This document shows positions 1,784 through 29,795 of a DNA stretch of 40,722 nucleotides, one piece after another. The DNA is from an uncultured Acidimicrobiaceae bacterium. Its GTDB lineage: Bacteria > Actinomycetota > Acidimicrobiia > Acidimicrobiales > Bog-793. The DNA lies in the NCBI GenBank assembly GCA_964485645.1, contig CAZAMA010000001.1, positions 9,512 through 50,233 of the forward strand. The letters are read 5' to 3'. A program made the position numbers and the translations under genes. The stretch's first letter is position 1. Every line of letters starts with the position of its first letter. A model generated the notes under the pieces. It did no database searches, had not been told where the DNA came from, and worked only from the letters and a program-made list of their open reading frames with translations.

Positions 1784-2509
1784 ATGGCCAGAGTTCTCGC
1801 GTACCATCGGCCCGGCACCATCGACGATGCGCTGGAGCTCCTGCAGCGCCCGGGCGCGGTACCGCTCGGCGGCGGGACGCAAGTGAATTCTCCGCCGGGC
1901 TCCTCCCCGATCGAGGTAGTCGACTTGCAGGGCCTGGCTCTCGACCGGATTCTGCCGTTGCGCGGGGAGCGGCTGGCCATTGGCTCCGGTGTCACCCTCC
2001 AGGCACTTTCCTTGAGCCAAGATGCACCGCCGGTCGTGAGAGAGGCCGCTCGCCGGGAGCTCCCGAGCACGCTTCGGGCCATGGCGACAGTAGCTGGCAC
2101 ACTCGTGACCGCCGAGGCAGAAAGTGAGCTCCTTGCAGCTCTGCTGGCATTCCAAGCCACCGTTGACTTTGTCGGGCCGACTGGCTCGACCACGATCGAC
2201 CTGACGGAGCTGCTGGCCGATCCTGCCGCGCGCAAGGGCAGCTTGATCACCACTGTCACCATCGAGACGAGCGGGGTCGCCCGAGCCGAGCGCGCAGGAC
2301 GGACGCCGGCCGATCGCCCCATCGTCGCCGCGGTCGCGCGTCGCGCGGAGGGGCGTCTCCGTCTCGCCTTAAGCGGCGTCGCATCAACACCAAGGCTGGT
2401 CGCCGACGTCGAGGCGCTCGACCCGCCAGGGGATTTTCGCGGCTCGTCAGAGTACCGAAAAGCGCTCGCGAAGGTGCTCGCCTCGCGTGCGAGGCAAGGG
2501 ACCGAGTGA
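1784..2509 (+). CDS. ygfM: Molybdo-hydroxylase FAD-binding subunit, YgfM-like
   Basis: YHRPGTIDDALELL, LGGGTQVN, ESELLAALLA and DFRGSSEYRK motifs. Short (241 aa) like YgfM. Stop overlaps the next start (GTGA). Confidence 0.8.
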   Translation: MARVLAYHRPGTIDDALELLQRPGAVPLGGGTQVNSPPGSSPIEVVDLQGLALDRILPLRGERLAIGSGVTLQALSLSQDAPPVVREAARRELPSTLRAMATVAGTLVTAEAESELLAALLAFQATVDFVGPTGSTTIDLTELLADPAARKGSLITTVTIETSGVARAERAGRTPADRPIVAAVARRAEGRLRLALSGVASTPRLVADVEALDPPGDFRGSSEYRKALAKVLASRARQGTE

Positions 2510-5442
2510 TGGAGATCGAACTGACGCTCAACGGCAAGCAGCGCCGTCTCGCCTGCGCGCCGGGAGACAGCCTCCTTGTGGTTCTCAGACGCGAGGGTTG
2601 TTACAGCGTCCGCTTTGGATCCGAGACCGGCGAGACCGGTGCCGGTGCTGTTCTCCTCGACGGCCGCCTCATCTCGGCCGAGGTGATGCTCGCCGCCCAG
2701 GCCAGCGGCCATACCGTCACGACGGTCGAGAGCCTCGACGAACGCACGGGAGAGCTTCATCCCATCCAGGAGGCGTTCCTTGAGGCCGGTGCACTGCAGT
2801 CCGGCTACTCGGCCGGGGCGATGGTGCTTGCCACCATGGCGCTGCTGGAGCGCACCTCGGACCCGAGCGAGTCAGAGATTCGAGACGCCCTTGGGGGCAT
2901 ATTGGACCGCGAGACCGGGTACACAAAGGTTTTCGAGGCGGTTCGACGCTCGGGTGCCCTGCTTCGCGGCGAGAAGCCCGAGCCGATGCAACCGGTAATC
3001 GTCGAGCACCTGACCGACGCGACTGGCGCCATGATCGGCCCCGAGCGCACCGAGCCCGTAGAGGCATCTTTGGCCCGACCGCGAGTCGTGCTCTCGGCGG
3101 CGGTCCCGCCGACGGCCGTCGTAGGACAGAGCGACCGCAAGGTCGACGGGCTCAGGCTCGCGAAGGGTCACCCGGCCTTCACCGACGACGTGGCGATGCG
3201 TGATCTGCTGTATGCAAAAGTGCTCCGCAGCCCGCACGCGCATGCACGAATCGTGAGCATCGACGACAGCGCGGCCCGCGCGCTCCCCGGTGTCCATGCG
3301 CTGATCCACTATGGCAACACGCCCCGCGTCAAGTACGCGTCGGGAGGTCAGAGCTGGCCGAACCCCTACCCCTGGGACCAGGTCAGCTTCGACGACAAGG
3401 TGCGTCATGTGGGAGACCGGGTGGCTGCCGTCGCCGCCGAGAGCCTCGAGACAGCCGAGGAGGCGTGTCGCCTCATCAAAGTCAGCTATGACGTGCTCCC
3501 AGCCGTCTTCGACGAGGTGCAGGCCCTCGGGACTGGCGCTCCCCAGATCCATGACGAGTCCGACTCGCCTGGCATCTACGACGCCAGCCGCAACGTGAGC
3601 AACCACATAGAGGGAGCCACGGTGAAAGACATCGAGGAGGCGCTCGGCCGCGCCGACCACGTGTTCGAGCAGACCTTCCATACCCAGCAGATGCAGCACT
3701 GTCCCATCGAACCGCACATCGCCATCGGATGGCTGGACGAGGACGACCGACTGGTGCTCAGGTCGTCGACCCAGGTGCCGTTCCACACGCGGCGGATGCT
3801 GGCACCCCTGCTCGGCCTGACGGTGAAACAGATCAGGGTGATAAAGCCGCGCATCGGCGGGGGTTTCGGCGCCAAACAGGAGATGCTCATCGAGGACATC
3901 GTCGGTCATCTCGTGCTGGCAACGCGAAGGCCCGTCCGCCTCGAGCTCACTCGCGAGGAGGAGTTCGTCTCCTCGCGTACGCGCCACGCGCAGACGATCA
4001 CGCTTCGTACCGGAGTGAGCAGTGACGGCAAGCTGGTCGCCCAAGACATGCGTGTAGTCGGCAACACCGGTCCTTACGGCGTGCACGGCTTCACCGTCCT
4101 ATCGGTCACAGGGCTGCGCGGCCTTTCTTCCTACAACTGCCCAGCCAAGGCCTACTCGTGCGACGTCGCCTACACGAACCGCCCCGTGGCAGGCGCCTTT
4201 CGCGGCTACGGCGGTCCTCAGGCCCTGTTCGCGCTCGAGAGCCACCTCGACGACATCGCGCGATCTCTTGGCATGGATCCGATCGAACTGCGCCGCAAGA
4301 ACTGGGTCGAAGTCGGCGACTCGCTGGACATCGCGCCAAGGCTGAGCGAGCGAGGCGGCGTCGTCGACGTCGCCGCCGAGGACATTCCCAAGGTGACGAG
4401 CTGCGGCACCGCCGAGTGCGTCGCGCAGGCTCTAGGCTCCATCGGCTGGCACAGACGCGACGACCCCGCCTGGAAGCACCCGAGTGACAGACCACACATC
4501 CGCCGGGGGATCGGCTTCGCCCTCTGCATGCACGGCACAGCGATTTCCCATGTCGACATGGGATCGTGCTCGATCAAGATGAACGACGACGCTTCGTTCA
4601 ACATGCTCTTTGGCGCCACGGATCTCGGTACCGGCACCGACACGGTGCTGGCACAGATAGCCGCCGAGGTGCTCGGCGTCGGAAGCGGGGACATAATCGT
4701 CTATGCGGCCGACACCGACCTCACTCCATTCGACGTCGGCGCTTATGCTTCAAGCACCACCTATGTGTCCGGGATGGCGGCAAAGAAGGCGGCCGAGGCG
4801 GCCCGAGCGATGATCGTTGCCCGCGCCGCCGAGATGCTCGGGATCGAGTCCCCAGCAGGGATCGAGCTTCATGACCGCCGCGCTCTTGCGCCCGACGGCA
4901 GGTCGGTCTCCCTCGAACAGATCGCTCTCGACTCTCTGCATACTCGCGACCAGCACCAGATAATCGGCACCGCTTCCCAGATGGCGCCCGACTCGCCCAA
5001 CGCCTTTGCTGCCCAGCTGGTCGAGGTCGAGGTCGACGTCGATACCGGTCAGGTCTACGTGCAAAAGATCGTGACCGCGGTCGATTGCGGCGTGCCGATC
5101 AACCCGATCACGGCGAGTGGCCAAGTCGAGGGGGGTATGTTGCAGGCGCTCGGCTACGCGCTCACCGAGGAGACCGCGATCGACGCCGAGGGTAAGCCGC
5201 TCAATGCTCGCTTTGGCCCGTACTGGATCTACCGCGCCGACGACGCCCCGCCAAGTGAAGTGTTCCTGGTGCAGACCTTCGAGCCATCTGGTCCATTTGG
5301 AGCAAAAGCAGTCGGAGAGATCGTGATCGACGGCATCGCGGCTGCGGTGCGAAATGCGATCCTGGACGCCACCGGCGTCGCCCTCACATCACTGCCACTG
5401 ACACCCGAGCGGGTATGGAGGGCCCTGCAGACCGCATCCTGA
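2506..5442 (+). CDS. xdhD: Fused (degenerate 2Fe-2S)-molybdopterin oxidoreductase, XdhD/YgfN-like
   Basis: N-terminal Fe-S-like domain whose ligand Cys are replaced (GSETGETGAGAV, QSGYS, LDRETGY). Mo-domain motifs LRSPHAHARI, GGGFGAKQE, FRGYGGPQ, GQVEGG and GAKAVGE (catalytic Glu). Architecture matches my recollection of E. coli XdhD. Confidence 0.85.
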   Translation: MMEIELTLNGKQRRLACAPGDSLLVVLRREGCYSVRFGSETGETGAGAVLLDGRLISAEVMLAAQASGHTVTTVESLDERTGELHPIQEAFLEAGALQSGYSAGAMVLATMALLERTSDPSESEIRDALGGILDRETGYTKVFEAVRRSGALLRGEKPEPMQPVIVEHLTDATGAMIGPERTEPVEASLARPRVVLSAAVPPTAVVGQSDRKVDGLRLAKGHPAFTDDVAMRDLLYAKVLRSPHAHARIVSIDDSAARALPGVHALIHYGNTPRVKYASGGQSWPNPYPWDQVSFDDKVRHVGDRVAAVAAESLETAEEACRLIKVSYDVLPAVFDEVQALGTGAPQIHDESDSPGIYDASRNVSNHIEGATVKDIEEALGRADHVFEQTFHTQQMQHCPIEPHIAIGWLDEDDRLVLRSSTQVPFHTRRMLAPLLGLTVKQIRVIKPRIGGGFGAKQEMLIEDIVGHLVLATRRPVRLELTREEEFVSSRTRHAQTITLRTGVSSDGKLVAQDMRVVGNTGPYGVHGFTVLSVTGLRGLSSYNCPAKAYSCDVAYTNRPVAGAFRGYGGPQALFALESHLDDIARSLGMDPIELRRKNWVEVGDSLDIAPRLSERGGVVDVAAEDIPKVTSCGTAECVAQALGSIGWHRRDDPAWKHPSDRPHIRRGIGFALCMHGTAISHVDMGSCSIKMNDDASFNMLFGATDLGTGTDTVLAQIAAEVLGVGSGDIIVYAADTDLTPFDVGAYASSTTYVSGMAAKKAAEAARAMIVARAAEMLGIESPAGIELHDRRALAPDGRSVSLEQIALDSLHTRDQHQIIGTASQMAPDSPNAFAAQLVEVEVDVDTGQVYVQKIVTAVDCGVPINPITASGQVEGGMLQALGYALTEETAIDAEGKPLNARFGPYWIYRADDAPPSEVFLVQTFEPSGPFGAKAVGEIVIDGIAAAVRNAILDATGVALTSLPLTPERVWRALQTAS

Positions 5443-5449
5443 GGCTCGG

Positions 5450-5848
5450 TCAGCTGCCGGACCCGCTGCCGGCTCCACTGCCGGCTCCACTGCCGGCGGG
5501 AGCATCGCGGAGCTGGGCGAACTCGTTGAACGCGGCCCACGCGCGGGGCCCGTAGACGGTGGCAGGACCCCCGTTCATCAATATCGCGACCGAGATCGCC
5601 TCGGCCACCTGTGCTGTGGTCGCGCCCTTGCGGGCCGCCCCGCGCGCGTGCGAGGCGATACAGCCGTCGCACTCCTTGGAGACCGCGATCACGAGGGCCA
5701 TGAGCTCCTTCACGTAGCCTGGCAGCTCTCCATCAGCCAGAGCCGCGTGATGAAGCGCCGCGAAACCCGCCCACGCCTCAGGTGCGGCCTCGCGCAGCGA
5801 GCGCGCCGGCCCCCGCAAAGCATCGAGCACCTCTTGTGCCTCACCCAT
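5450..5848 (-). CDS. AhpD/carboxymuconolactone decarboxylase family protein
   Basis: KELMALVIAVSKECDGCIASH (CxxC...H), EAISVAILMNGGP. AGGAGG SD upstream. Confidence 0.85.
   Translation of the reverse strand: MGEAQEVLDALRGPARSLREAAPEAWAGFAALHHAALADGELPGYVKELMALVIAVSKECDGCIASHARGAARKGATTAQVAEAISVAILMNGGPATVYGPRAWAAFNEFAQLRDAPAGSGAGSGAGSGSGS
5454..5497. repeat. 12-bp tandem repeat (ctgccggctcca, about 3.6 copies, first copy degenerate) encoding a Gly/Ser/Ala tail
   Basis: ctgccggacccg ctgccggctcca ctgccggctcca ctgccggc; translates on the minus strand as AGSGAGSGAGSGSGS. Confidence 0.8.
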
Positions 5849-6019
5849 CTTCCTCCTGCTTTCTCCGACCCCTAGGCACGACTCTCCAGTCAGTCTGTTC
5901 TACCGGCCGGGCTTGCCGCCTGACTGTCCTTGCCGGCCGGCGGACCAGACGGTGCCCGAGCTTGGCACAGTCACCGGCAGGATCTCCACCGGCGCCAAGG
6001 CGGGCACGGCATCGGCAAT

Positions 6020-6033
6020 GGGACCTTTGGCCC
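6020..6033 (+). promoter_or_regulatory. DosR/DevR-like box GGGAC-CTTT-GGCCC
   Basis: Close match to the actinobacterial DosR core GGGAC-N4-GNCCC. A -10-like TACAAC lies at 6057-6062, starting 30.5 nt from the centre. Intergenic, upstream of the 6139-14475 run. Confidence 0.6.
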
Positions 6034-6138
6034 TTGCAGGGGAGCGAGAGCACCGCTACAACCACATACAGGACGGACTTAGATCGCGGAGATGTTGAAA
6101 TCCATGGGTCAGCCAACGGGCCGTGAGACGACCGAGCA

Positions 6139-8793
6139 GTGAGAGGCTCCATCTTCGTCAACGGAGAGAGACGCGAGATCTCAGGCGACGACGAGATCTC
6201 CCTGCTCGAGGTGGTAAGGGGAGATCTTGGTCTGCTGGGTACGAAGTTCGCCTGCGGAGAGGGTGCCTGTGGTGCCTGCACGGTGCTGATCGGGCGCGAG
6301 CCTGTATCCGCGTGCCAGGTGCCCGCGGCGAGCGTGCTCGGGCGCCAGGTCACCACCGTCGAAGGCTTGGCCGAGGACGGTGTCCTTCATCCCGTCCAGC
6401 AGGCATTCCTGGATCTCGGTGCGTTGCAGTGCGGCTTCTGCACGGCCGGATGGGTCGTCGCGGCTGCCGCCCTCCTCGCAAGAGAGCAAGACCCGAGCGA
6501 TGCCCAGATAGTCAGCGCTCTGGACGGACATCTGTGTCGCTGCGGCACCTACTCGCGCGTCCTGCGCGCTGTGCGGCGAGCCGCCGAGGTCATGGCGACG
6601 CCTGAGGCATATCTGCGGGCAAGCAGCGTGGGGCACGAGAAGGGCCAAGCCCCGCCGAGCGACCCGAGCGCGTCGGTGACAGCTACGAGGGTTGCGCGCG
6701 GTGGCGACATCCAGCCTCTCGACCTTGCTCCGAGCCGGATGCGACCCTTCTTCGAGCATCTTGGCGAAGGGCTCGTCGTAGCAGTGGAAGCTCCTCGAGG
6801 CGCCGAACCCGAGGAGAGATGGACGACGGCTCGCACCGCGTGGCTCCACTTCGGCTCGGACGGAAAAGTCACCGCGTTCACAGGCAAGGTCGAGCTCGGA
6901 CAGGGCACGAGGACCGGCCTCAGCCTGCTCGTGGCCGAGTCTCTCGGCGTCCCGCTCTCCTCGGTGGAGCTCGTCATGGGCGACACCGACGTGTCTCCCT
7001 ACGACATGGGTACCTTCGGCAGCCGCTCTATGCCCGATGCCGCTCCCCACCTGCGCCGCGCCGCTGAAGCCGTTCGGGGCATACTCCTCGAGGCGGCGGC
7101 CGAACGCGTCGGCGCATGCGCGAGCGACCTCGAGCTCGCCGGTGGCGGCGTCGCCGATCAAAGTGGTGCCGTCAAGATCACCTACGCCGGCCTCCTTGGC
7201 GGCGTCAAGCGCGTCGAGACCGTCGACAACGACACACCACTTGCCCACGTGGGCAAGTGGGAGACCGCCGGGCGCGCGACGACGGCAGTCGGAGCAAACG
7301 ACGTCGTCACCGGGCGTCGTCGCTACCCTTCGGACCTCTCGCTGCCGGGAATGCTGTATGGATGCGTCCTGCGCCCTCCTGCATTCGGCGCCGTGCTCGA
7401 CAGCCTCGACACCGCAGGCGCAAGAGAGGTGTCAGGCGCGATCGTGGTGCACGACGGCGATTTCGTCGCGGTCTGTGCAGCCGATCACCGAGTTGCGCGC
7501 CGGGCACTTCGCGCCATCGGGGCGAGGTGGTCCCTTGCGGCCCAACCTGACCAGCGCGGGATCGAGCAGTATCTGCGCTCTCACCCGACAAGCGGCGACG
7601 GCTGGGAAGCGGCTCTTGAGCAGGAGAGCGGCGACGTGAGCGCGGCGCTTTGCCTTGATCCGGCTCGAACTCGGGCAACCTACACGACGGCCTATATCGC
7701 CCACCTGCCTCTCGAGCCGTGCGTGGCGATCGCGCAGTGGGAAGACGACCGCGTGACGGTTTGGACCGGGACACAGACGCCCTTTAGTGATCGCCGCCAG
7801 GTCGCCATCGGGCTCGGGGTGGACGAGGGCCGGGTACGGATCGTGGTACCTGACTTCGGAGGGGGTTTCGGCGGGCGTCAGCGCCTTTCCATCTCCCTCG
7901 AGGCCGCCCGACTCGCGAGAGCCGTCAACCGACCGGTGAAGGTTCAGTGGAGCCGGTGGGAGGAGCTCATGGCGAATCATTTCCGTCCCGCCGCAGTCAT
8001 CGACGTCGAGAGCGCCACCGACGCAACCGGGATGCTGAGTGCGTGGTCATTTACAAATATCAACTCCGGTGCCGCAGGCATTGCCACGCCGTATCGCGTG
8101 CCCAACCGGCACATCTCCTACGTCCCGGCCGCCTCACCTCTGCCCCAGGGGCCTTACCGTGCACTCGCCGCGACCGCCAACCACTTCGCCCGTGAGTCAC
8201 ACATGGACGAGGTCGCGCATCGGCTCGGTCTCGACCCACTTACGTGGCGCTTGGCACACATCGATGACGACCGGCTGGCTCACGTGCTCACGGTGGCGGC
8301 CGAGCGCATCGGATGGCAGGACACGACTTTGTCAGATGCGGGTGTCAGGGGTCGGGGCATTGCTTGCGGTAGCGAAAAGGGGGCCCGGATCGCCACCGCG
8401 GCAGAGGTCACGGTTGACGACGCAGGCCGGCTCGCGGTCACAAAGCTCGTATCTGTCTTCGACGGCGGCCGTATCGTCAACCCCGACAACCTCTCGAACC
8501 AGGTCGAGGGTGCTGCCTTGACGGGCCTCGGCGGCGCGCTCTTCGAGGTAGTCGAGTTCTCTGCGGGACGGATCGGGAATGCCTCGTTCTCGACTTACCG
8601 GCTCCCACGGCTGAGCGATCTGCCTAAGATCGAGGTCGTGCTGGTGGACCGCCAGGAGCTCGACCCGGCTGGCGGGGGCGAGACACCCATCGTCGCAGTC
8701 GCGCCGGCCGTCGCGAACGCCATCTTCGCCGCCACCGGCGTGCGGCTGCGCTCGCTGCCTCTTTGTCCCGACGGCATCGTGGTCCGATCCTGA
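6139..8793 (+). CDS. Fused 2Fe-2S plus IorB/nicotinate-dehydrogenase-type molybdopterin oxidoreductase
   Basis: Intact ACGEGACGACTV...SAC, QCGFC and LCRCG Fe-S motifs. Then IorB-type order: TGKVELGQGTRT, DMGTFGSRS, GGGFGG, YRALAATAN, NQVEGA, GGGETP. Confidence 0.85.
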   Translation: MRGSIFVNGERREISGDDEISLLEVVRGDLGLLGTKFACGEGACGACTVLIGREPVSACQVPAASVLGRQVTTVEGLAEDGVLHPVQQAFLDLGALQCGFCTAGWVVAAAALLAREQDPSDAQIVSALDGHLCRCGTYSRVLRAVRRAAEVMATPEAYLRASSVGHEKGQAPPSDPSASVTATRVARGGDIQPLDLAPSRMRPFFEHLGEGLVVAVEAPRGAEPEERWTTARTAWLHFGSDGKVTAFTGKVELGQGTRTGLSLLVAESLGVPLSSVELVMGDTDVSPYDMGTFGSRSMPDAAPHLRRAAEAVRGILLEAAAERVGACASDLELAGGGVADQSGAVKITYAGLLGGVKRVETVDNDTPLAHVGKWETAGRATTAVGANDVVTGRRRYPSDLSLPGMLYGCVLRPPAFGAVLDSLDTAGAREVSGAIVVHDGDFVAVCAADHRVARRALRAIGARWSLAAQPDQRGIEQYLRSHPTSGDGWEAALEQESGDVSAALCLDPARTRATYTTAYIAHLPLEPCVAIAQWEDDRVTVWTGTQTPFSDRRQVAIGLGVDEGRVRIVVPDFGGGFGGRQRLSISLEAARLARAVNRPVKVQWSRWEELMANHFRPAAVIDVESATDATGMLSAWSFTNINSGAAGIATPYRVPNRHISYVPAASPLPQGPYRALAATANHFARESHMDEVAHRLGLDPLTWRLAHIDDDRLAHVLTVAAERIGWQDTTLSDAGVRGRGIACGSEKGARIATAAEVTVDDAGRLAVTKLVSVFDGGRIVNPDNLSNQVEGAALTGLGGALFEVVEFSAGRIGNASFSTYRLPRLSDLPKIEVVLVDRQELDPAGGGETPIVAVAPAVANAIFAATGVRLRSLPLCPDGIVVRS

Positions 8794-8866
8794 TGCCCTT
8801 GAGAACGCTCCGCACGACAACAAGACTGCTCCGCGATTCCAACAGTGAGGACAGGAAGGACACGAG

Positions 8867-11742
<2,876 letters not shown>

Positions 11743-11788
11743 GCAGCTCGGCACTCGGGCGAGAGAGCACCTGAGGAGAGGAGCGACC

Positions 11789-13087
11789 ATGAGGCAACGA
11801 CGGGTGCTCCGCGGAGCGCGCTGGCCGGGAGATATCGCCATCGAGGGCGGCCTCATCACCGAGGTCGGCCCCGTCGAGCACCTAGGAGGCGACGTCGAGC
11901 TCGACTGCACCGACACCATCATCACGGCCGGCCTCGTCAACACGCATCACCATCTCTATCAGTGGCTCACGCGAGGAAGGGCGACGGGCTGCGCTCTGTT
12001 CGAGTGGCTGAGCGAGCTCTACCCGATCTGGGCCAAGATCGACGCCGACGACGTGGCTGCGGCTGCCCGGCTCGGCTTGGCTGAGATCGCGCTCGGCGGC
12101 GCCACCACGGTCGCAGACCACCACTACATCGTGCCTCGAGGCGACGACTCGGTGTTCGAGGCGCTAGCTCGTGCTTCCCGCGAAGTCGGCGTGCGCATCT
12201 TTCTCTCCAGGGGCTCGATGGACCTCGGTGAGAGCCGGGGCGGGCTCCCCCCCGACGACGTCGTCGAGGAGACCGCCGCCATCTTGTCCTCCACGGAGAC
12301 GATCGCTTCACGCCTCCACGACGGCGACCTCGTAAACGTTGTCGTCGCTCCCTGCAGCCCCTTCTCGGTGACGACGGAGCTGATGACAGAGTCGGCAGCT
12401 CTTGCCCGCCGGCTCGGATTGCGCCTCCACACTCATCTTGCCGAGACCGTGGAGGAGGAGCGTGACTGCCTTGCGCGCTTCGGCAAGCGGCCGCTCGAGG
12501 TACTGGAGGATCTCGACTGGATCGGCCCCGACGTCTGGTTCGCCCATGGCATCCACTTCGACGCCGACGAGATACGCCGCGTCGGGGCCGCCGGCACCGG
12601 CGTCGCCCACTGCCCGAGCTCGAATGGCCGCCTCGGCTCAGGGATCTGCGCCGTGACGGATCTGCGGAGGGCCGGCGCACCAGTCGGCCTCGGGGTGGAC
12701 GGTCCGGCCTCGAACGAGGTCGGGACCTTGTTTCCCGAGCTGCGCCAGTCCCTCTACTTCGCCCGCCAGCGCGCCGGCAGCGCCGCGGCGTTCTCCCCCT
12801 TAGATGCACTCGAGCTCGCGACAACAGGCGGCGCCCGTGCCCTTGGTCGGCACGACCTCGGCCGGCTCGAGCCGGGCGCGCCCGCAGACGTCGCGGTGTG
12901 GCCCGCCGGTGACCTGGCAGACATGTCCGATCCGCTGGCCGGGCTCGTGCTCGGTCCCGATCGCCGCGTCCGCCACCTGCTCGTAGGGGGCAAAGACGTC
13001 GTGACCGACGGCGCCTTGACAGGCGTGGACCTCGCGGGAGCCAGGGAAGACCTGGTACGCCGGGCAAAGAGGCTCTGGGCATGTTGA
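11789..13087 (+). CDS. 8-oxoguanine deaminase-like amidohydrolase (AtzB/SsnA superfamily)
   Basis: SD gaggag then ATG 11789. NTHHHLYQ, PCSPFSV, HTHLAE, HCPSSN, GVDGPASN. Confidence 0.8.
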   Translation: MRQRRVLRGARWPGDIAIEGGLITEVGPVEHLGGDVELDCTDTIITAGLVNTHHHLYQWLTRGRATGCALFEWLSELYPIWAKIDADDVAAAARLGLAEIALGGATTVADHHYIVPRGDDSVFEALARASREVGVRIFLSRGSMDLGESRGGLPPDDVVEETAAILSSTETIASRLHDGDLVNVVVAPCSPFSVTTELMTESAALARRLGLRLHTHLAETVEEERDCLARFGKRPLEVLEDLDWIGPDVWFAHGIHFDADEIRRVGAAGTGVAHCPSSNGRLGSGICAVTDLRRAGAPVGLGVDGPASNEVGTLFPELRQSLYFARQRAGSAAAFSPLDALELATTGGARALGRHDLGRLEPGAPADVAVWPAGDLADMSDPLAGLVLGPDRRVRHLLVGGKDVVTDGALTGVDLAGAREDLVRRAKRLWAC

Positions 13088-14475
13088 TCAGCGGGGGCAC
13101 CGTCGTAGACGCTGCCGGGGAGCGCTCCTGCGACCTGCGTGTCGGCACCGACGGGAGGGTGGAGGACGTAGCCCTTGGCCTCGTGCCTAGGCCCGGCGAG
13201 CCCGTGCATGACGCGACGGGCAAGCTGGTCGTGCCCGGAGGCGTGGACGTTCACACCCATCTCAATCTTCCGCTCGGGGCAGTCCGGGTCTCCGACAGCT
13301 TCGCGACAGGTACGAGGGCCGCTGCGCTTGGTGGCACGACGACGATCATCGACTATGTCACCGTGCAACGGGGCGAGGATCCGATGGAGACCGTGGGCCT
13401 CTGGCGGTCTTGGGGGAAGGATTCGGCCATCGACTGGGGGCTGCACCTCACCTTCACCGAGCCTGCTTCAGAGTCGACGCTCGCGGCCGCGACCGATGCC
13501 GGCATCACGTCGTTCAAGCTGTATCTCGCGTACCCTGCCAGCCTGCAGGTGGACGACGGCACGGTGCTGCGCCTCATGCGCGCCGCGCGACGCCACGAGA
13601 TGCTCGTCAACCTTCACTGCGAGAACGGCGACGCCATCGAAGAGCTCCGCCGGGAGGCCGTCACGGCCGGGCGCACGGCAGTTGCGGAGCACGCCCGGAC
13701 GAGGCCGGCAGCCCTCGAAGCTGAAGCGGTCAATCGTGCCGCCGTCTTGGCGGAGATCACCGGGGCGGGAATCTATATCGTGCATGTCTCCTCTGCCGAC
13801 GCTCTCGCCGCGGTGCGCGCCGCGAGGCAGCGGGGCGTCGACATAACGGCGGAGACCTGCCCGCACTACCTCTACCTGGATGCAAGCCGCCTCGAAGGCG
13901 AAGACGCCGCGGATTTTGTCTGCACGCCTCCGCTGCGCGACCCATGGCATGCCGCGGAGCTGTGGCGGGGGCTTGCCGATGGATCAATCCAGACCGTCGC
14001 AACGGACCACTGTCCCTTCTGGCGCGCGGATCGTCGCGCCGGCATGGCTCACTGGCACGGCGACGCCGCAGGCTTCACGGACATACCCGGGGGCCTGCCC
14101 GGGATCGAAACCCGCCTCGCCCTCCTCTTCGAGGGGGTGCGCGCCGGCAGGATCACCGTGGCTGACTGGGTGCGGCTGTGCGCGGAGGCGCCGTCGCGGA
14201 CCTTTGGCCTGTGGCCGGAGAAGGGCTCTCTCCAGATCGGCGCCGACGCAGACGTCATCGTCTGGGATCCCAGCCGCAGGCAACCCTTGGGCGCGAGCTA
14301 CCTGGATATGGCAGTCGACCACTCGCCCTACGAGGATATGGTCGTCACGGGCTGGCCCGAGCTGGTGCTCTCCCGGGGCAGGGTCGTCGCACGCGACGGC
14401 CGTTTCACTGGTGAGCAGGGGTGGGGACGCTACACGGCACGCCGGCCGAGAAGCTACTCAGGGCCGGGCGAGTAG
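13081..14475 (+). CDS. hydA: Dihydropyrimidinase/D-hydantoinase
   Basis: PGGVDVHTHL, GGTTTIID, TSFKLYLAY (carbamylated Lys), HCENG, ETCPHYL, ATDHCPF, PGGLPGIETR. Confidence 0.88.
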   Translation: MLISGGTVVDAAGERSCDLRVGTDGRVEDVALGLVPRPGEPVHDATGKLVVPGGVDVHTHLNLPLGAVRVSDSFATGTRAAALGGTTTIIDYVTVQRGEDPMETVGLWRSWGKDSAIDWGLHLTFTEPASESTLAAATDAGITSFKLYLAYPASLQVDDGTVLRLMRAARRHEMLVNLHCENGDAIEELRREAVTAGRTAVAEHARTRPAALEAEAVNRAAVLAEITGAGIYIVHVSSADALAAVRAARQRGVDITAETCPHYLYLDASRLEGEDAADFVCTPPLRDPWHAAELWRGLADGSIQTVATDHCPFWRADRRAGMAHWHGDAAGFTDIPGGLPGIETRLALLFEGVRAGRITVADWVRLCAEAPSRTFGLWPEKGSLQIGADADVIVWDPSRRQPLGASYLDMAVDHSPYEDMVVTGWPELVLSRGRVVARDGRFTGEQGWGRYTARRPRSYSGPGE

Positions 14476-14500
14476 CTGCCGGCAAGACGGGGAAAGCCTC

Positions 14501-15505
14501 TCAGGCCGTCCAGCCGGCAAAAGCGTCGATCATGGCATGGACGTCGCTCCCGAGCGGGTAGAGCACCGGGCAGGTGCAGCCGCCGTGAACGTACTCGGCC
14601 ACCTTCTCCCGGCACTCGTCGGCCGTTCCAGAGGCAGTGATCATCTGCACCACGTCGTCGGGCACGAGCTTGGACGCCGCGACGATCTGCTCCTCGGTGG
14701 CCGGCCAGGTGAGTACCTTGGCGATCTCGTCCAGCAACGAGTCCGGCACGCCCGACGCCTTCATGATGTGGGGTTGTTGACCCAGGTACTGGGTGACGAG
14801 GAGCCGTGCCGCATCGAGGGCCGCCTTGCGGTCCTCGTCGAGCGAGCACACGACGAGCTGGGGCCGGTCGAGGTCGGTGGCTGACCGCCCTGCGCGCCGA
14901 GCGCCGATCTCGAGATGCTCCATCGCAGTCGCGTTGTACGCAGGAGAGACCAGGTAGTTGAGCACGACACCGTCACCTATCTCCCCGGCGAGCTCCATCA
15001 TCTGCATGCCGGTCGCCCCGATATAGATCGGCACGTCCTTCGGACGCCGCTCCTGGTGTACGTAGTCGAGCTCGACGCCGTCGAGGTGGACGAACTCGCC
15101 CGCGTAGGTGACGTTCTCGTCGGCTAGAAGCGCACGCACCGCCTGAACGGTCTCGCGCATTGCGAGAAGCGGCTTGATGCGCTTGACGCCGACCTTGCTC
15201 GCAAGCGGCTCCCACCACGCACCGATGCCGAGGATTACCCGACCCGGCGCGAGGTCGTCGAGCGTCGAGAAGGTCGCCGCCAAAAGCGCTGGGTTGCGGG
15301 TCCAATTGTTCACGACGCCCGAGCCGACTTTGATCCGCTCGGTGACGGCGAGATAGGCCGCCATTGGCACGGTCGCCTCCCGTACGAGCCTGCTCTCGGC
15401 TTGCCATATCGCCGCGAAACCCTTCGACTCGGCATACGCGGAGATCTCCATGCCCTGCCGAACGGGGTGCGCGTCCTGCAGGTAAACCGCGACCGGGGTG
15501 CTCAT
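14501..15505 (-). CDS. LLM-class (luciferase-like) oxidoreductase, Mer-like, possibly F420-dependent
   Basis: [65 protein letters not shown]. Start overlaps the stop of the Mo subunit. Confidence 0.85.
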
Positions 15506-17811
15506 GACCCTACCTCCTCGTGCTTGTGGGCTTCTCGAGACCGAAGGGCGATGTCCTGGGGACGGATCGGTACGCGGGTGAGGTCGATCCCGGTCGCCTG
15601 GCGAATAGCTGCAACTACGGCCGGAGTCGAGGAGATGGTCGGCGGCTCACCGGCGCCTTTTGCCCCGAGGGGGGCTCCGGGCTCTCTCTGCTCGATCAGT
15701 GCCTGGATGTGGACCGCAGGCATGTCGAGGGCCGTGGGGATGATGTAGTCGGTGAAGGACGCGTTGCGAGGCCTGCCATGGTCGAGGACGATCTCCTCCA
15801 TCACTGCCAGCCCCACACCCTGGGCTATGCCCCCCTCGATCTGGCCAACGAGCTGCACCGGGTTGAGGACCCGGCCGACATCCTGGGAAGTCGCGATCTC
15901 GACGACCCGCACGAGGCCGAGGTCGAGGTCGACATCGACTACGGCGCGATGGGCCGCGAAGGCATAGGAGACGTGAGCGTCGCCCTGGCCGTTCGCGTCG
16001 AGCGGCACCGTCGGCGGGTGGCGGTACACCACGGTCTCCTCGATTACCCCGCCCGCCGCAGCCTCCGCGAGCGAAAGATCGAGCGAACCGTCGCGGGCGC
16101 CGACCCGGCCGTCCACCACCTCGAGGCCCGCGCGGGGAACTTCCAGACGCTGGGAGACCGTGTCGAGCAGGCGGTCCTTCACCTTCTCGCACGCCGCCGC
16201 GACGGCGCCGCCGCTCATCCAGGTCTGGCGGCTCGCCGAGGAGGAGCCCGCCGAGTCGATGCCAGCTGTGGCAGCTTCGCCGAGGACCACCTCCTCGACG
16301 CCGAAGACGTCGCGAGCTATCTGCTGGATCAAAGTGACGAGACCTTGGCCGACCTCGACCGCCGCGGTCGTGACCGTGACCCGGCCGTCATCGAGGCGGC
16401 AGCGCGCGGTCGCGTAGTCATCGAATCCGGCCGAGTACATGAGGTTCTTGAATCCCACAGCGAAACCCACGCCTCGGCGGACCCGACCGCGGTCCGCGCT
16501 CCGCCCTGCCCCCCCTGGGAGCGCGACCTCTGTCAGTGCCTCCGGGCCGCCCTGCGGGAGGGGCGCCGAGGCACACGTACGGATCAGCTCGGCGACCGGA
16601 GCCGCGCCGGAGAACTTCTGGCCGGTGATGAGCTCGTCGCCGGTGGCCACCGCGTTGCGCAGTCTCAGCTCGACGGGATCCATCCCGAGCGCGCCGGCAA
16701 GCTTGTCCATCTGGGCCTCGTACGCGAAGCAGACCTGGACGGCACCAAAGCCGCGCATCGCTCCGCACGGCGGGTTGTTGGTCCTGACGGCCGTGGCGTC
16801 CACGAAAGCGTTGGGAACCTTGTACGGTCCCGCCGCGAAGCTCGCGGCATTTTGCAGCACCGCGGTGGACGACGAGAGATACGCTCCGCCGTCAAGCAGT
16901 ATGCGCGCCTCCACTTTTACGAGCTTGCCCGCCGCGTCGGCGCTGTGCCGGTACCACATCTTGGCTGGGTGACGGTGTACGTGACCGAAGAACGACTCCT
17001 CGCGCGAAAAGACCATCTTCACCGGGCGGGCAATGCGCAGTGCCAGCATACTCAAGGGGATCTGCATGCTCAGGTCCTCGCGGGCCCCGAAGGCGCCGCC
17101 GACGCCGGCGAGGTGCAGCCGGACCTGTTCGGTCGGAAGATCGAGGCAGGCAGCAATCTGGTCGCGATCGACATGCAGCCACTGGGTGGCGATGTAAAGG
17201 TCGATGCCGCCGTCCCCTGCTGGAACAGCCAGGCCCGCCTCTGTCCCCATGAAGGCCTGGTCCTGCATGCCGACCTCGTAGTAGCCGTCAACGACGACGG
17301 CACCCGTCGCGCCGGCCTCGCCGCGCCTCACTTCCTGATGGACAAAGACGTTGCCGTCCGGGTGGATCGGCGGAGCGTCTACCGCCAGCTCCGAGTCGAC
17401 AAGCGGCGCGGTTAAGTCAAAGTCGACCACGACTGCCGCCGCGGCCCTGCGGGCCGTCTCGGGATGATCGGCGGCGACCGCAGCTACCGGCTCTCCCATA
17501 TAGCGAACGACGTCTGAGGCGAACACCGGCTGGTCGGGCTTCTCGAGGCCGTAGGTCTTCCGTCCTGTGACGTCGTCAGCGGTGATCACGGCAAAGACGC
17601 CGGTCATCGACAGGGCCGGCGAGACGTCGATCGACCTGATCCTTGCCGAGGCATGCGGGGAGCGAACGAGGTGTCCCCATGCCATCTTCTCGTCATGTAG
17701 ATCGGAGGAGAAGGCGAAGCGTCCGAGCACTTTGTCCCTCCCGTCGGGCCTCGGCGCGCTCTGCCCGAGCCTGAGGGCGGGATTAGTCTTTGTGAGCGCG
17801 GCGGTCGTCAT
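15502..17811 (-). CDS. pucD: Xanthine dehydrogenase-family molybdenum-binding subunit (PucD-like)
   Basis: Likely start is ATG 17811 (MTTAALTK), in an ATGA overlap with the Fe-S gene. [50 protein letters not shown]. Confidence 0.85.
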
Positions 17812-18308
17812 GGTCGGCGCGCGATCTCCACTGCCCGCACGGCCGCGAGGATGCGACCGTACCCGGTGCATCGGCAAAGGTTCCCTGAGATGGCCTCCCG
17901 CACCTCGAGCTCTGTCGGAGTCGGATTGTGCTCGAAGAGGTCGTGCACGCTTACGATGAGCCCAGGCGTACAGAACCCACACTGGACGGCTCCCTCGTTG
18001 ACGAACGCCTCCTGGATGTCGGAGAGGTCACCGCCGCCGCGTGACAGGCCCTCCACGGTGACGATCTCGCTGTCGATCGCGCCGGCGGCAAGAACCATGC
18101 AAGCGCACTCGAGCCTTCCATCGAGCAATACCGAGCACGAACCGCACTCGCCCTGTTCACAGGCGTTCTTTGACCCCCATAGGCCGAGCCGCTCCCTCAA
18201 CACGTACAGCAGGCTCTCGCCGAACCAGGCGTCGACGACGCCTCTGCGCTCTCCGTTCACGCGAAGCTCGTAGCTGAGCAGCTCACCCGGATCGCTCAAG
18301 TCTCCCAT
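17808..18308 (-). CDS. pucE: Xanthine dehydrogenase-family 2Fe-2S subunit (PucE/CoxS-like)
   Basis: ACEQGECGSCSV...CAC, QCGFCTPG, NLCRCTGY. Confidence 0.9.
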   Translation of the reverse strand: MGDLSDPGELLSYELRVNGERRGVVDAWFGESLLYVLRERLGLWGSKNACEQGECGSCSVLLDGRLECACMVLAAGAIDSEIVTVEGLSRGGGDLSDIQEAFVNEGAVQCGFCTPGLIVSVHDLFEHNPTPTELEVREAISGNLCRCTGYGRILAAVRAVEIARRP

Positions 18309-19183
18309 GGCACCTCCTCGGGGCTATCTTCGGCCCTCTTTGCAAGCACGCGCTCCAGGGCACGCCTCGCGCACACCCCTGCAGCGTGGCGGCGGTACTG
18401 CGCCGTCGAGCGGTGGTCGTCGATCGGCCGCACCGCCTCACGAACCAGCGCCGAGAACTGCTCCAGATCCTGCTCGCCGCCCCGCAGCCGTCGCTCGTCC
18501 CAGTCGATCGCCGTCGTCGCGAACTTTTCGGCAGCGCTCGCCCTGATGATCACGGGTCCGACCGACCCGAGCGCGCATCGCACAGTTCGCCCGACCCAAT
18601 CGACCACGAGAGCGGCATTGGCAACCGCGATGACCATGGCGTTGCGCGTTCCGACCTTCAAGAACTCCTGCGTCCCGAAGGCGGCTGGCAGCCGGATCTC
18701 GACGATTACCTCCCCTTCCTGCAGACAGTTGCGCTTCGGGCCGACGATGAGCTCCGCGACGGAGAGCTCGCGACGGCCGTCACTGCGTCCGACCACGACC
18801 TTGGCGTCAAGTGCCGACAGGACCGGCAATGTGTCGCCCGCGGGCGACGCGGTCCCGAGATTGCCGCCGAGCGTGCCCGCGTTGCGTATCTGGGGCGAGC
18901 CGACTGTCCGAGCCGCCTGGGAGAGGCCCGGCAGGAGGTCACTGAGCTCCGGGCGCATCAGCTCGCCATAGGAGAGTCCCGCACCGATGACGACGTCGCC
19001 ACCTTCGCGTCGCCAGCCCTTGAGGTCCCCTACGCCTCTCAGCGACACTATGGCCCGAGGACGACGCTGGGCGTAGTTGACCTCCACCATGAAGTCGGTG
19101 CCACCTGCGATCATCTCGGCGCCCGGCAGGCTCGCCAGTGCATCGAAGACACCTTCGAGAGATGTCGGAACGAGTACCGGCAC
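18296..19183 (-). CDS. pucC: Xanthine dehydrogenase-family FAD-binding subunit (PucC/CoxM-like)
   Basis: AGGTDFMV, VGSPQIRNAGTLGGNLGTASPAGD, PIDDHRSTAQYR. Confidence 0.9.
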   Translation of the reverse strand: MPVLVPTSLEGVFDALASLPGAEMIAGGTDFMVEVNYAQRRPRAIVSLRGVGDLKGWRREGGDVVIGAGLSYGELMRPELSDLLPGLSQAARTVGSPQIRNAGTLGGNLGTASPAGDTLPVLSALDAKVVVGRSDGRRELSVAELIVGPKRNCLQEGEVIVEIRLPAAFGTQEFLKVGTRNAMVIAVANAALVVDWVGRTVRCALGSVGPVIIRASAAEKFATTAIDWDERRLRGGEQDLEQFSALVREAVRPIDDHRSTAQYRRHAAGVCARRALERVLAKRAEDSPEEVPWET

Positions 19184-19186
19184 GCC

Positions 19187-19264
19187 TCAGCCCGCCCATC
19201 TGAGACCGAAGAGGACCGAGCAAGCCATGGCACGTGATGTCTTCATAGGCTTCACCACCTCCAC
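19187..19264 (-). CDS. Putative small upstream ORF/leader peptide (MEVVKPMKTSRAMACSVLFGLRWAG)
   Basis: AGGAGG 8 nt before GTG 19264; alternative ATG 19246 after GGAGGT. Stop ends 3 nt before the FAD-subunit GTG. Confidence 0.3.
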   Translation of the reverse strand: MEVVKPMKTSRAMACSVLFGLRWAG

Positions 19265-29766: not shown

Positions 29767-29795
29767 GAGGGGCGACCATACCAGCGTCACTCCCT

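Follow-up and report, generated by a model that had tools for sequence, protein, structure and literature searches.

A candidate split, F420-type variant of the reductive urate pathway in an Acidimicrobiales-like actinobacterium

Main finding

The stretch of DNA analysed here, called the window throughout, spans 40,722 nucleotides and corresponds to positions 9512-50233 of contig C1 in a 3.97-Mb draft genome (519 contigs, 86% complete). At window positions 1784-19264 it carries a block of purine-type genes. We propose that this block is the larger part of a reductive urate (2,8-dioxopurine) pathway of variant form, spread over two loci, with the remainder on a second contig, C7. Judging from homology and gene context, we consider it likely, with good confidence, that the block belongs to the 2,8-dioxopurine pathway family. 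That it represents a split, modular and F420-type form of the pathway is the reading we favour, with somewhat less assurance. The host is an Acidimicrobiales-like actinobacterium represented by a metagenome-assembled draft genome, and the G+C content of the window is 65-69%.

An earlier note on this DNA had read the block as a candidate new variant of the reductive purine/urate pathway. That the block is part of a purine catabolism akin to that pathway is supported; the gene families recur in other genomes as clusters with SsnA and carbamoyltransferases. The note had also proposed that unrelated families, a luciferase-like oxidoreductase (LLM) and two pyridoxal phosphate (PLP) enzymes, sit in place of ygfK, ygeW, ygeY and dpaL. 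The counts given below support the LLM as standing where YgfK stands elsewhere, and show the PLP enzymes to be phyletically complementary to DpaL. The window is not a complete pathway, as the note had implied, because SsnA, the carbamoyltransferases and carbamate kinase lie on C7. Nor have YgeW and YqeA been replaced by unrelated families: C7 encodes two dedicated carbamoyltransferases and a carbamate kinase.

Gene content of the two loci

The long open reading frames (ORFs) of the window were scanned with Pfam and NCBIfam profiles, where "cut-off" denotes the curated score threshold of a family. All gene types that the earlier note had named in the block were recovered:

1784-2509, plus strand: FAD-binding subunit of 241 aa, the YgfM-like partner of the XdhD-like gene (PF00941, 71.5 bits)
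2506-5442, plus strand: fused 2Fe-2S/molybdopterin enzyme of 978 aa with the architecture of E. coli XdhD (Fer2_2, hammerhead, MoCoBD_1, MoCoBD_2)
6139-8793, plus strand: IorA/IorB-type fused Fe-S/Mo hydroxylase of 884 aa, accessory (Fer2, Fer2_2, MoCoBD_2, MoCoBD_1)
8867-10366, plus strand: PLP1, a CysK/CBS-fold PLP enzyme of 499 aa (PF00291, 39.1 bits, cut-off 35)
10363-11742, plus strand: PLP2, a threonine-synthase-like PLP enzyme of about 459 aa (PF00291, 121 bits)
11789-13087, plus strand: amidohydrolase of the 8-oxoguanine deaminase family (NF006055, 533.1 bits, cut-off 532)
13081-14475, plus strand: D-hydantoinase/dihydropyrimidinase, the HyuA equivalent (TIGR02033, 456 bits, cut-off 393)
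14501-15505, minus strand: LLM, an F420-type luciferase-like oxidoreductase of 334 aa (PF00296, 224.7 bits)
15502-17811, minus strand: Mo subunit of a xanthine dehydrogenase (XDH), PucD type (TIGR03196, 828.5 bits, cut-off 783.65)
17808-18308, minus strand: XDH 2Fe-2S subunit (Fer2_2, 105.8 bits)
18296-19183, minus strand: XDH FAD subunit (FAD_binding_5, 153.7 bits, with CO_deh_flav_C)

Inspection of start codons placed the start of PLP2 at GTG 10363, overlapping the PLP1 stop, so that the two genes are translationally coupled. The amidohydrolase starts at ATG 11789 behind a strong Shine-Dalgarno sequence, and the PucD-type gene at ATG 17811, overlapping the stop of the Fe-S gene. The latter belongs to a PucCDE-type XDH, in which the Mo subunit scores above the PucD equivalog cut-off, the Fe-S and FAD genes overlap with it in an operon, and the FAD subunit reaches 155 bits with the XdhB model, under its cut-off. 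The two additional xanthine-oxidase-family enzymes of the earlier note are both present; one is this ordinary XDH and the other belongs to the very common IorA/IorB-type family.

The second purine-type locus, on C7, opens with an NCS1 purine/cytosine permease and an Amidohydro_3 protein. These are followed by an aspartate-transcarbamoylase-like (ATC-like) and then an ornithine-transcarbamoylase-like (OTC-like) carbamoyltransferase, a carbamate kinase and a PnrA-type ABC transporter. The locus ends with a 985-aa fused Fe-S/Mo enzyme (C7:38747-41704) and, directly after it, a 341-aa SsnA-like protein (C7:41705-42730; 17706-18731 in locus L014). The carbamate kinase, which shares 49% identity with YqeA, scores 390 bits with NF009007 (cut-off 266), and the OTC-like protein is 33% identical to YgeW and reaches 158-174 bits with YgeW models (cut-offs 453-500). 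We ruled out that the C7 carbamoyltransferases are the housekeeping PyrB and ArgF, as separate pyrB-like and argF-like copies exist in the genome. This genome thus encodes ygeW-like and yqeA-like genes, both on C7. Directly downstream of the purine locus, at C7:44512-50591 (L015), lie the hydrogenase maturation genes hypD, hypF, hypE-like and hypC-like, a hint of hydrogen metabolism in the host.

The E. coli K-12 pathway proteins were also searched by BLASTP against all six-frame ORFs of the genome. Best matches fell in the window for XdhD (35% identity, full length), YgfM (30%) and HyuA (41%), and on C7 for SsnA (39%), YqeA (49%) and YgeW (33%). YgeX, YgeY, MocA and YqeC had no match in the genome (YgeY at E <= 1e-3). 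No YgfK ortholog was found, as the best match reached 273 bits (cut-off 835) and covered the C-terminal half only, and no DpaL ortholog, the best model score being 35 bits against 532. Uricase had no match in the 86%-complete genome. As the earlier note had stated, ygfK, ygeW, ygeY, dpaL and uricase are all absent from the window; elsewhere in the genome a ygeW-like gene was found, on C7, but no counterpart of ygfK or dpaL at family cut-offs. The ygeW-like gene goes against the note in part, by the note's own terms, since it had named orthologs of these genes elsewhere in the genome as a ground for refutation.

Recurrence of the window and C7 genes as one cluster

To place these genes, we assembled a PLP1-anchored sample: the best 80 of at least 573 PLP1 relatives (one genome per species), each with flanks of up to 10 kb per side, complete in 44 of the 80. 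Partners were searched by tblastn with window, C7 and E. coli proteins as queries. A match had to reach E <= 1e-10, cover at least half of the query in a single alignment and pass a family-specific identity floor, given in brackets:

PLP2, adjoining PLP1 (at least 40%): 62 of 80 loci, 33 of 44 with full flanks
SsnA-type gene: 45 of 80, 32 of 44
C7-type Fe-S/Mo enzyme (at least 45%): 40 of 80, 31 of 44
ATC-like carbamoyltransferase (at least 60%): 37 of 80, 27 of 44
Carbamate kinase (at least 50%): 29 of 80, 21 of 44
OTC-like carbamoyltransferase (at least 60%): 28 of 80, 22 of 44
LLM (at least 60%): 23 of 80, 18 of 44
Window-type deaminase (at least 44%): 20 of 80, 14 of 44
Hydantoinase (at least 40%): 12 of 80, 6 of 44
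YgfK (at least 30%): 9 of 80, 6 of 44
Window-type XdhD-like enzyme (at least 70%): 8 of 80, 6 of 44
YgeW (at least 45%): 7 of 80, 3 of 44
YgeY (at least 30%): 5 of 80, 4 of 44
YgeX (at least 30%): 2 of 80, 1 of 44

At least one pathway partner beyond PLP2 stood near PLP1 in 38 of the 44 fully flanked loci, and the genes do co-occur elsewhere, a point on which the earlier note had staked its proposal. The gene maps show contiguous, same-strand, compact clusters in relatives, and the families recur jointly across several phyla. In Nocardioides taihuensis (locus L082), for instance, the order is deaminase, PLP1, PLP2, SsnA, LLM, ATC-like, OTC-like, FAD subunit and XdhD-like gene. Because the window and C7 genes stand together in one cluster in other genomes, we regard them as one system that is split here. 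The identical split was observed in three well-assembled genomes of the same order (G067, G096 and G152), where PLP1 and SsnA lie 0.3-2.2 Mb apart. N. taihuensis and Rhodovulum sp. PH10 are cultured carriers of the cluster.

Purine-linked families recur among the neighbours, namely components of PnrA-type ABC transporters (9-17 loci), adenine deaminase (8) and the NCS1 permease (7); a GntR/UTRA regulator recurs in 8 loci. In some genomes, families of this gene set are mixed with true YgfK, YgeW and YgeY homologs (40-66% identity). A class-III aminotransferase was also seen near PLP1 in 9 of the 80 loci (L055 and eight others among L019-L098).

A candidate F420-type reductase in the place of YgfK

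The top NCBIfam and PDB matches of the LLM are all F420 enzymes, under the subfamily cut-offs, with Mer (1z69) at 6e-38, and the genome encodes CofD of F420 biosynthesis (313 bits, cut-off 257). Mer enzymes transfer a hydride from F420H2 onto a nitrogen-bound carbon. We infer that the conversion of 2,8-dioxopurine to ureidomethylhydantoin amounts to one two-electron reduction plus water, which would fit LLM chemistry; the product identities are those of Li et al. (2025).

The LLM turned up 23 times in the 80-locus sample and YgfK nine times, never together. Restricting the count to the 45 SsnA-bearing loci gave 22 with the LLM, nine with YgfK and 14 with neither in range. The pattern was also seen in a sample chosen independently of PLP1, which consists of 27 regions around SsnA-model matches of at least about 209 bits. 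These were drawn from a phylum sample of 251 genomes (the window's own included) minus four unpublished genomes, without which some of the counts below are repeated. In the 22 regions with a convincing SsnA, YgfK was adjacent in eight, the LLM in six, both in none and neither in range in eight.

At the level of whole genomes, LLM orthologs (at least 68% identity) were found in 14 of the 251, and 13 of these 14 were SsnA-positive, against 42 of 251 overall; once the unpublished genomes are removed, 9 of 10 compares with 38 of 247. In the gene maps of relatives the LLM orthologs adjoin SsnA. Three PLP1-positive genomes without this LLM (G096, G152 and G165) have YgfK beside SsnA instead. In the window genome itself, the best YgfK score (273 bits) lies far below the cut-off of 835, and no search for UacX (PF01180) was made. 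By label, 22 of the 23 LLM-bearing loci belong to Actinomycetota and one to Ca. Sysuimicrobiota.

These distributions support a non-orthologous replacement of ygfK, and the LLM is, in our view, a fairly likely 2,8-dioxopurine reductase. An exchange of this kind has been noted before: Li et al. (2025) report, at the Pfam level, a putative F420-dependent reductase (PF00296) in place of YgfK or UacX in Chloroflexota SsnA neighbourhoods. In the parts of that paper used here, this F420 variant takes up one sentence of neighbourhood analysis, without biochemistry.

Two PLP enzymes in the niche of DpaL

PLP1 has an invariant Schiff-base lysine (K112) and S-T-G-N loop. Its AlphaFold model (predicted local distance difference test, pLDDT, 79) finds CysK and CBS as best folds, with O-ureidoserine synthase among the structural neighbours, and the CysK/CBS-type core bears extensions of ~100 residues at both the N and the C terminus. 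The PLP1 family has at least 8000 members, all scored candidates being significant; among the 120 matches listed, identity ranges from 58 to 97%, and relatives with a label include members of Acidimicrobiales (97% identity) and of Chloroflexota, among others. PLP2 has an N-terminal Cys-rich motif and a conserved PLP lysine motif, and its best PDB match is the threonine synthase 2zsj (1e-13). Both families bear generic names only in the homolog search and the protein atlas.

Like DpaL/YgeX (TIGR03528), PLP1 and PLP2 are fold-type-II PF00291 proteins, and within the SsnA-positive genomes they fill the same phyletic niche. They differ from it in type, PLP1 being CysK/CBS-like and bearing long extensions, PLP2 threonine-synthase-like; DpaL models match neither at E <= 1e-5, and BLASTP with YgeX finds neither. 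PLP1 is present in 13 of the 251 genomes, all 13 of them SsnA-positive and none DpaL-positive. DpaL-type genes occur in 24 (21 without the unpublished genomes), of which 13 (10) are SsnA-positive. No DpaL-type gene exceeded the cut-off in five well-assembled cluster-bearing genomes (best 44 bits).

A near relative, G114, carries a DpaL-like gene instead of PLP1 and PLP2 in an otherwise equivalent module, whose identities to the present proteins are 83% for the LLM, 85% for the ATC-like and 79% for the OTC-like protein, 74% for the short SsnA, 73% for the Fe-S/Mo enzyme and 67% for the hydantoinase. In G097 the LLM occurs together with DpaL-like and YgeY-like genes. A non-orthologous replacement of dpaL is plausible on this evidence, and a role of PLP1/PLP2 as the terminal lyase is an attractive possibility that falls a little short of what we would call probable.

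The strongest alternative keeps the reductive purine route and denies that PLP1 and PLP2 substitute for DpaL. PLP1 would then beta-eliminate the ureido group from 3-ureidoalanine (albizziin), bypassing both YgeY and DpaL, or the pair would make a different amino acid from diaminopropionate or from a ureido intermediate by beta-replacement, the usual reaction of CysK/CBS-type and threonine-synthase-type enzymes. The fold of PLP1 speaks for this: members of the CysK/CBS family convert beta-substituted alanines to aminoacrylate, and one structural neighbour is O-ureidoserine synthase. So does the rarity of YgeY (5 of 80) and YgeX (2 of 80) in PLP1 loci, and the presence of a YgeX-like gene alongside PLP1 and PLP2 in two of them. 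Since a YgeX-like gene co-occurs in these two loci, the role of PLP1/PLP2 may differ from that of DpaL or add to it. We nevertheless think this alternative unlikely: the two carbamoyltransferases and carbamate kinase of most LLM-type clusters already cover both ureido groups, the otherwise equivalent module of G114 has a DpaL-like gene where PLP1/PLP2 would stand, and PLP1 and DpaL share none of the 251 genomes.

Molybdenum enzymes, amidohydrolases and hydantoinase

Two Mo enzymes are candidates for removing the 6-oxo group of urate. In the window, the short FAD subunit has TIGR03312 (Se_sel_red_FAD, YgfM type) as its best NCBIfam match, at 73 bits against a cut-off of 241, and FAD-subunit homologs (at least 45%) adjoin an XdhD-like gene in 9 of the 80 loci. 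The XdhD-like enzyme scores 656 bits with TIGR03313 (XdhD type, cut-off 1102), about equal to the 652 bits of the XdhA model, and aligns with E. coli XdhD at 35% identity across residues 1-954. The two proteins share a loop insertion and a glutamate (E615, aligned to XdhD E606) that are not found in XdhA; E606 is the XdhD residue singled out by Li et al. (2025). At this position XdhA has a gap, the PucD-type protein Gly and the C7 enzyme Asp, which, coming from a loop alignment, is weak evidence. We regard the XdhD/YgfM-type pair as a candidate urate 6-dehydroxylase (2,8-dioxopurine dehydrogenase).

The second candidate, the 985-aa C7 enzyme, reaches 798 bits with TIGR03311 ("selenium-dependent xanthine dehydrogenase", cut-off 830). 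SsnA is accompanied more often by this type (40 of the 80 loci) than by the window type, and four of the eight loci bearing the window-type enzyme have no C7-type enzyme in range, for which reason either enzyme may serve as the dehydroxylase. Both types are present side by side in several related loci, such as L040 and L074. The 884-aa enzyme has very common homologs of 53-94% identity, labelled "nicotinate dehydrogenase subunit B" or "isoquinoline 1-oxidoreductase". Homologs of at least 40% identity were found in none of the 80 related loci, and this IorA/IorB-type enzyme is accessory, not a conserved cluster member; its gene sits between the XdhD-like gene and PLP1 only in near relatives. 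The idea that it is a circular permutation (MoCoBD_2 before MoCoBD_1) was dropped, as the common IorA/IorB-type fused family accounts for it.

The window amidohydrolase, which the earlier note had placed in an SsnA/8-oxoguanine-deaminase family, proved to be of the second kind, though borderline (533.1 bits against the NF006055 cut-off of 532), and not of the first (119-125 bits with SsnA models). Its PDB matches are 3hpa (3e-94) and 7ww2, an "8-oxoguanine deaminase" (4e-91), and it shares only 25% identity with E. coli SsnA. We ruled it out as an SsnA substitute given its family and the SsnA homolog on C7; it is probably a feeder deaminase that would produce urate. The C7 SsnA (341 aa, 39% identity to SsnA) scores 254-270 bits against cut-offs of 444-455. 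It has its own ATG and intact metal-ligand motifs; the N-terminal beta-sandwich segment is missing from it, as are some internal stretches. The same compact form (model positions about 57-340) was found in nine further sampled genomes, eight of them in the window's class. A truncated pseudogene was ruled out by the start codon, the motifs and this recurrence. The hydantoinase passes TIGR02033, is 41% identical to HyuA and is HyuA's top match in the genome.

The same enzymes could in principle serve another N-heterocycle, with the cluster of PLP1, SsnA, LLM and carbamoyltransferases degrading a pterin, lumazine, 8-oxoguanine by another route, or a pyrimidine, and the XDH only loosely linked. 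The deaminase family of the window also includes isoxanthopterin deaminases, and the nearest relatives of the LLM work on a pterin cofactor. TIGR02033 likewise names dihydropyrimidinases, and the SsnA, XdhD and YgeW homologs all lie under their equivalog cut-offs. Against this, the families mirror the urate pathway step by step, from Mo dehydroxylase, reductase, SsnA and hydantoinase to carbamoyltransferase with carbamate kinase and PLP enzyme. True YgfK, YgeW and YgeY homologs are intermixed in some genomes, and the recurrent neighbours (adenine deaminase, PucD-type XDH, purine transporters) are purine-specific. These points make another substrate quite improbable.

Proposed flow and its weighing

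Under the two-locus urate reading, and with every enzymatic assignment drawn from homology and gene context, the flow may be set out as follows; for the chemistry of the pathway, and for what each E. coli or clostridial enzyme does in it, we follow Li et al. (2025) and Liu et al. (2025). The 8-oxoguanine-deaminase-family enzyme and the PucCDE-type XDH would feed purines in as urate. A Mo enzyme, either the window XdhD/YgfM-type pair or the clostridial-type enzyme of C7, would strip the 6-oxo group to give 2,8-dioxopurine. The LLM, with F420H2, would deliver a hydride to the ring, the step of YgfK in E. coli and UacX in C. difficile. The compact C7 SsnA would then open the pyrimidine ring and the window D-hydantoinase the hydantoin ring, yielding 2,3-diureidopropionate. 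The two C7 carbamoyltransferases with carbamate kinase could take off the ureido groups by phosphorolysis. Energy would possibly be conserved at both cleavages, as opposed to one phosphorolysis and one YgeY hydrolysis; that both groups are indeed phosphorolysed is a tentative suggestion. Last, PLP1, usually with PLP2, would act in place of diaminopropionate ammonia-lyase and release pyruvate and ammonia.

A broader proposal, which we consider rather doubtful as a whole, is that the PLP1 family, with thousands of members in Actinomycetota, Chloroflexota, Acidobacteriota and further soil phyla, represents a terminal lyase of a new class, acting on 2,3-diaminopropionate or beta-ureidoalanine. It would work in a widespread environmental version of the pathway with an F420H2-dependent 2,8-dioxopurine reductase and twin carbamoyltransferases, often selenium-independent and also running in aerobes, which could yield two carbamoyl phosphates (two ATP) per urate as opposed to one.

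Neither the window nor the C7 locus matched a riboswitch or any other RNA family in Rfam. That an oxidative purine module (XDH and deaminase) lies by chance beside an unrelated pyrimidine-type hydantoinase, a generic LLM and PLP enzymes would agree with the use of both strands, the inserted IorAB-type gene, the SsnA homolog on another contig and the lack of an Rfam regulatory RNA linking the window genes, but it is very improbable, as the families recur together in several phyla, often in tight co-directional clusters, and PLP1 and the LLM are strongly associated with SsnA at the genome level.

Several observations weigh against the two-locus F420 reading. Most pathway proteins fall below the E. 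coli-type cut-offs (XdhD 656 against 1102, YgfM 73 against 241, SsnA 254-270 against 444-455, YgeW 158-174 against 453-500), and the genome encodes two candidate urate dehydroxylases, either of which may be the acting one. All 80 loci were picked on the presence of PLP1; 18 of them are without PLP2, only 12 have a hydantoinase near PLP1, and six of the 44 with full flanks hold PLP1 without any recognisable pathway partner. A YgeX-like gene (33% and 46% identity) lies within 10 kb of PLP1/PLP2 in two of the 80, and the Dermatophilaceae locus with PLP1 and a YgeX-like gene also has YgfK, SsnA, HyuA-like, YgeW and YgeY genes. The five Chloroflexia loci with a visible reductase carry YgfK, whereas Li et al. 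(2025) put the F420 type in Chloroflexota; their survey and our PLP1-anchored sample were drawn differently. The exclusivity counts overstate their statistical weight because related genomes are not independent, and absences from the window genome are provisional because the draft is only 86% complete.

Selenium and oxygen

Liu et al. (2025) found SelD with YqeB/YqeC in every gut strain bearing the cluster and showed selenium dependence. The window genome encodes SelD (331 bits), and neither YqeB nor YqeC was found in its 86%-complete assembly. Homologs of E. coli YqeB and YqeC were present in one and none of the 80 loci, respectively. Among eight other cluster-bearing genomes, YqeB exceeded its cut-off in one (beside the cluster) and SelD was present in five, while three had neither. 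These three carriers (genomes G001-G003; loci L082, L042 and L036) include the cultured N. taihuensis, and suggest that the pathway takes a selenium-independent form in them.

The earlier note had also called the route O2-independent. This agrees with the inferred chemistry and does not extend to the hosts: uricase was found in two of five cluster-bearing genomes tested. Independence from O2 is a property of the inferred chemistry, and the hosts are not necessarily anaerobes.

Relation to known systems and significance

With the E. coli ygeW-xdhD pathway the system shares a fused Fe-S/Mo enzyme with a short FAD partner, a HyuA-type hydantoinase and an adjacent XDH and purine deaminase in the window, as well as an SsnA homolog, carbamate kinase and a YgeW-related carbamoyltransferase, all on C7. 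YgfK, YgeY, YgeX, MocA, YqeB and YqeC were not found in the window genome; instead there are an F420-type LLM, a second carbamoyltransferase and PLP1/PLP2, the SsnA is of ~340 aa, and the genes occupy two loci. The clostridial variant is resembled by the C7 enzyme, which, like XdhAC of C. sporogenes (DOPDH), is a fused Fe-S/Mo protein without an FAD subunit. It is 25.7% identical to E. coli XdhD, and C. difficile "XdhD" is 25.6% identical according to Li et al. (2025). Its label as clostridial-type comes from model score and architecture. The Amidohydro_3 protein beside the C7 carbamoyltransferases belongs to the same Pfam family as C. difficile UacY. The selenium maturation markers YqeB/YqeC, not found in the window genome, set it apart from the clostridial variant.

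Another published likeness is the F420 variant of Li et al. (2025), in which a luciferase-family putative F420-dependent reductase likewise lies beside SsnA. That survey takes every PF00291 protein for YgeX and every PF00185 protein for YgeW, whereas here the PLP and carbamoyltransferase components are distinct families. The present cases are mainly from Actinomycetota (22 of 23 LLM loci by label), and the exclusivity with YgfK is quantified. The exchange of LLM for YgfK is the sole element previously published, as far as the parts of Li et al. (2025) used here go. In the literature searched, supplements not covered, we found no F420 variant beyond theirs, and no account of PLP1/PLP2 in the niche of DpaL, twin carbamoyltransferases, the compact SsnA or a loose tie to selenium. 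The PLP1/PLP2 pair, the doubling of the carbamoyltransferase and the weak selenium link thus appear to be undescribed.

The 2,8-dioxopurine pathway was described in 2025 only and, in the parts of Li et al. (2025) and Liu et al. (2025) used here, in gut anaerobes and E. coli only. Our data point to a modular relative outside the gut that is common among bacteria of soil and freshwater, in Actinomycetota, Chloroflexota, Acidobacteriota and further groups, with PLP1 in at least 573 species-level genomes. The electron donor of this variant appears to be coenzyme F420, the selenium-cofactor markers of gut strains are often missing from it, and its twin carbamoyltransferases could give a second ATP-conserving step. 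A testable function is offered for two large, generically named PLP families. For annotation, a caution follows: colouring neighbourhoods at the Pfam level (PF00291 as "YgeX", PF00185 as "YgeW") masks non-orthologous components.

Other features of the window and contig

Beyond the window, the flanks on C1 were searched by tblastn with the query panel, without a Pfam scan, and gave no further pathway homologs. The 696-bp stretch between the XdhD-like and IorAB-type genes (5443-6138) holds short ORFs only, without a Pfam or Rfam match. Three longer ORFs of the window, at 1-1479, 21638-23638 and 25151-27061 (492, 666 and 636 aa), had no Pfam match. A pair of divergent genes of ~820 aa each, which looks unconnected to the purine block, lies at 27334-29790 (minus strand) and 30850-33312 (plus strand); both have the DAO/FAO_M/GCV_T domains and resemble dimethylglycine/sarcosine dehydrogenases.

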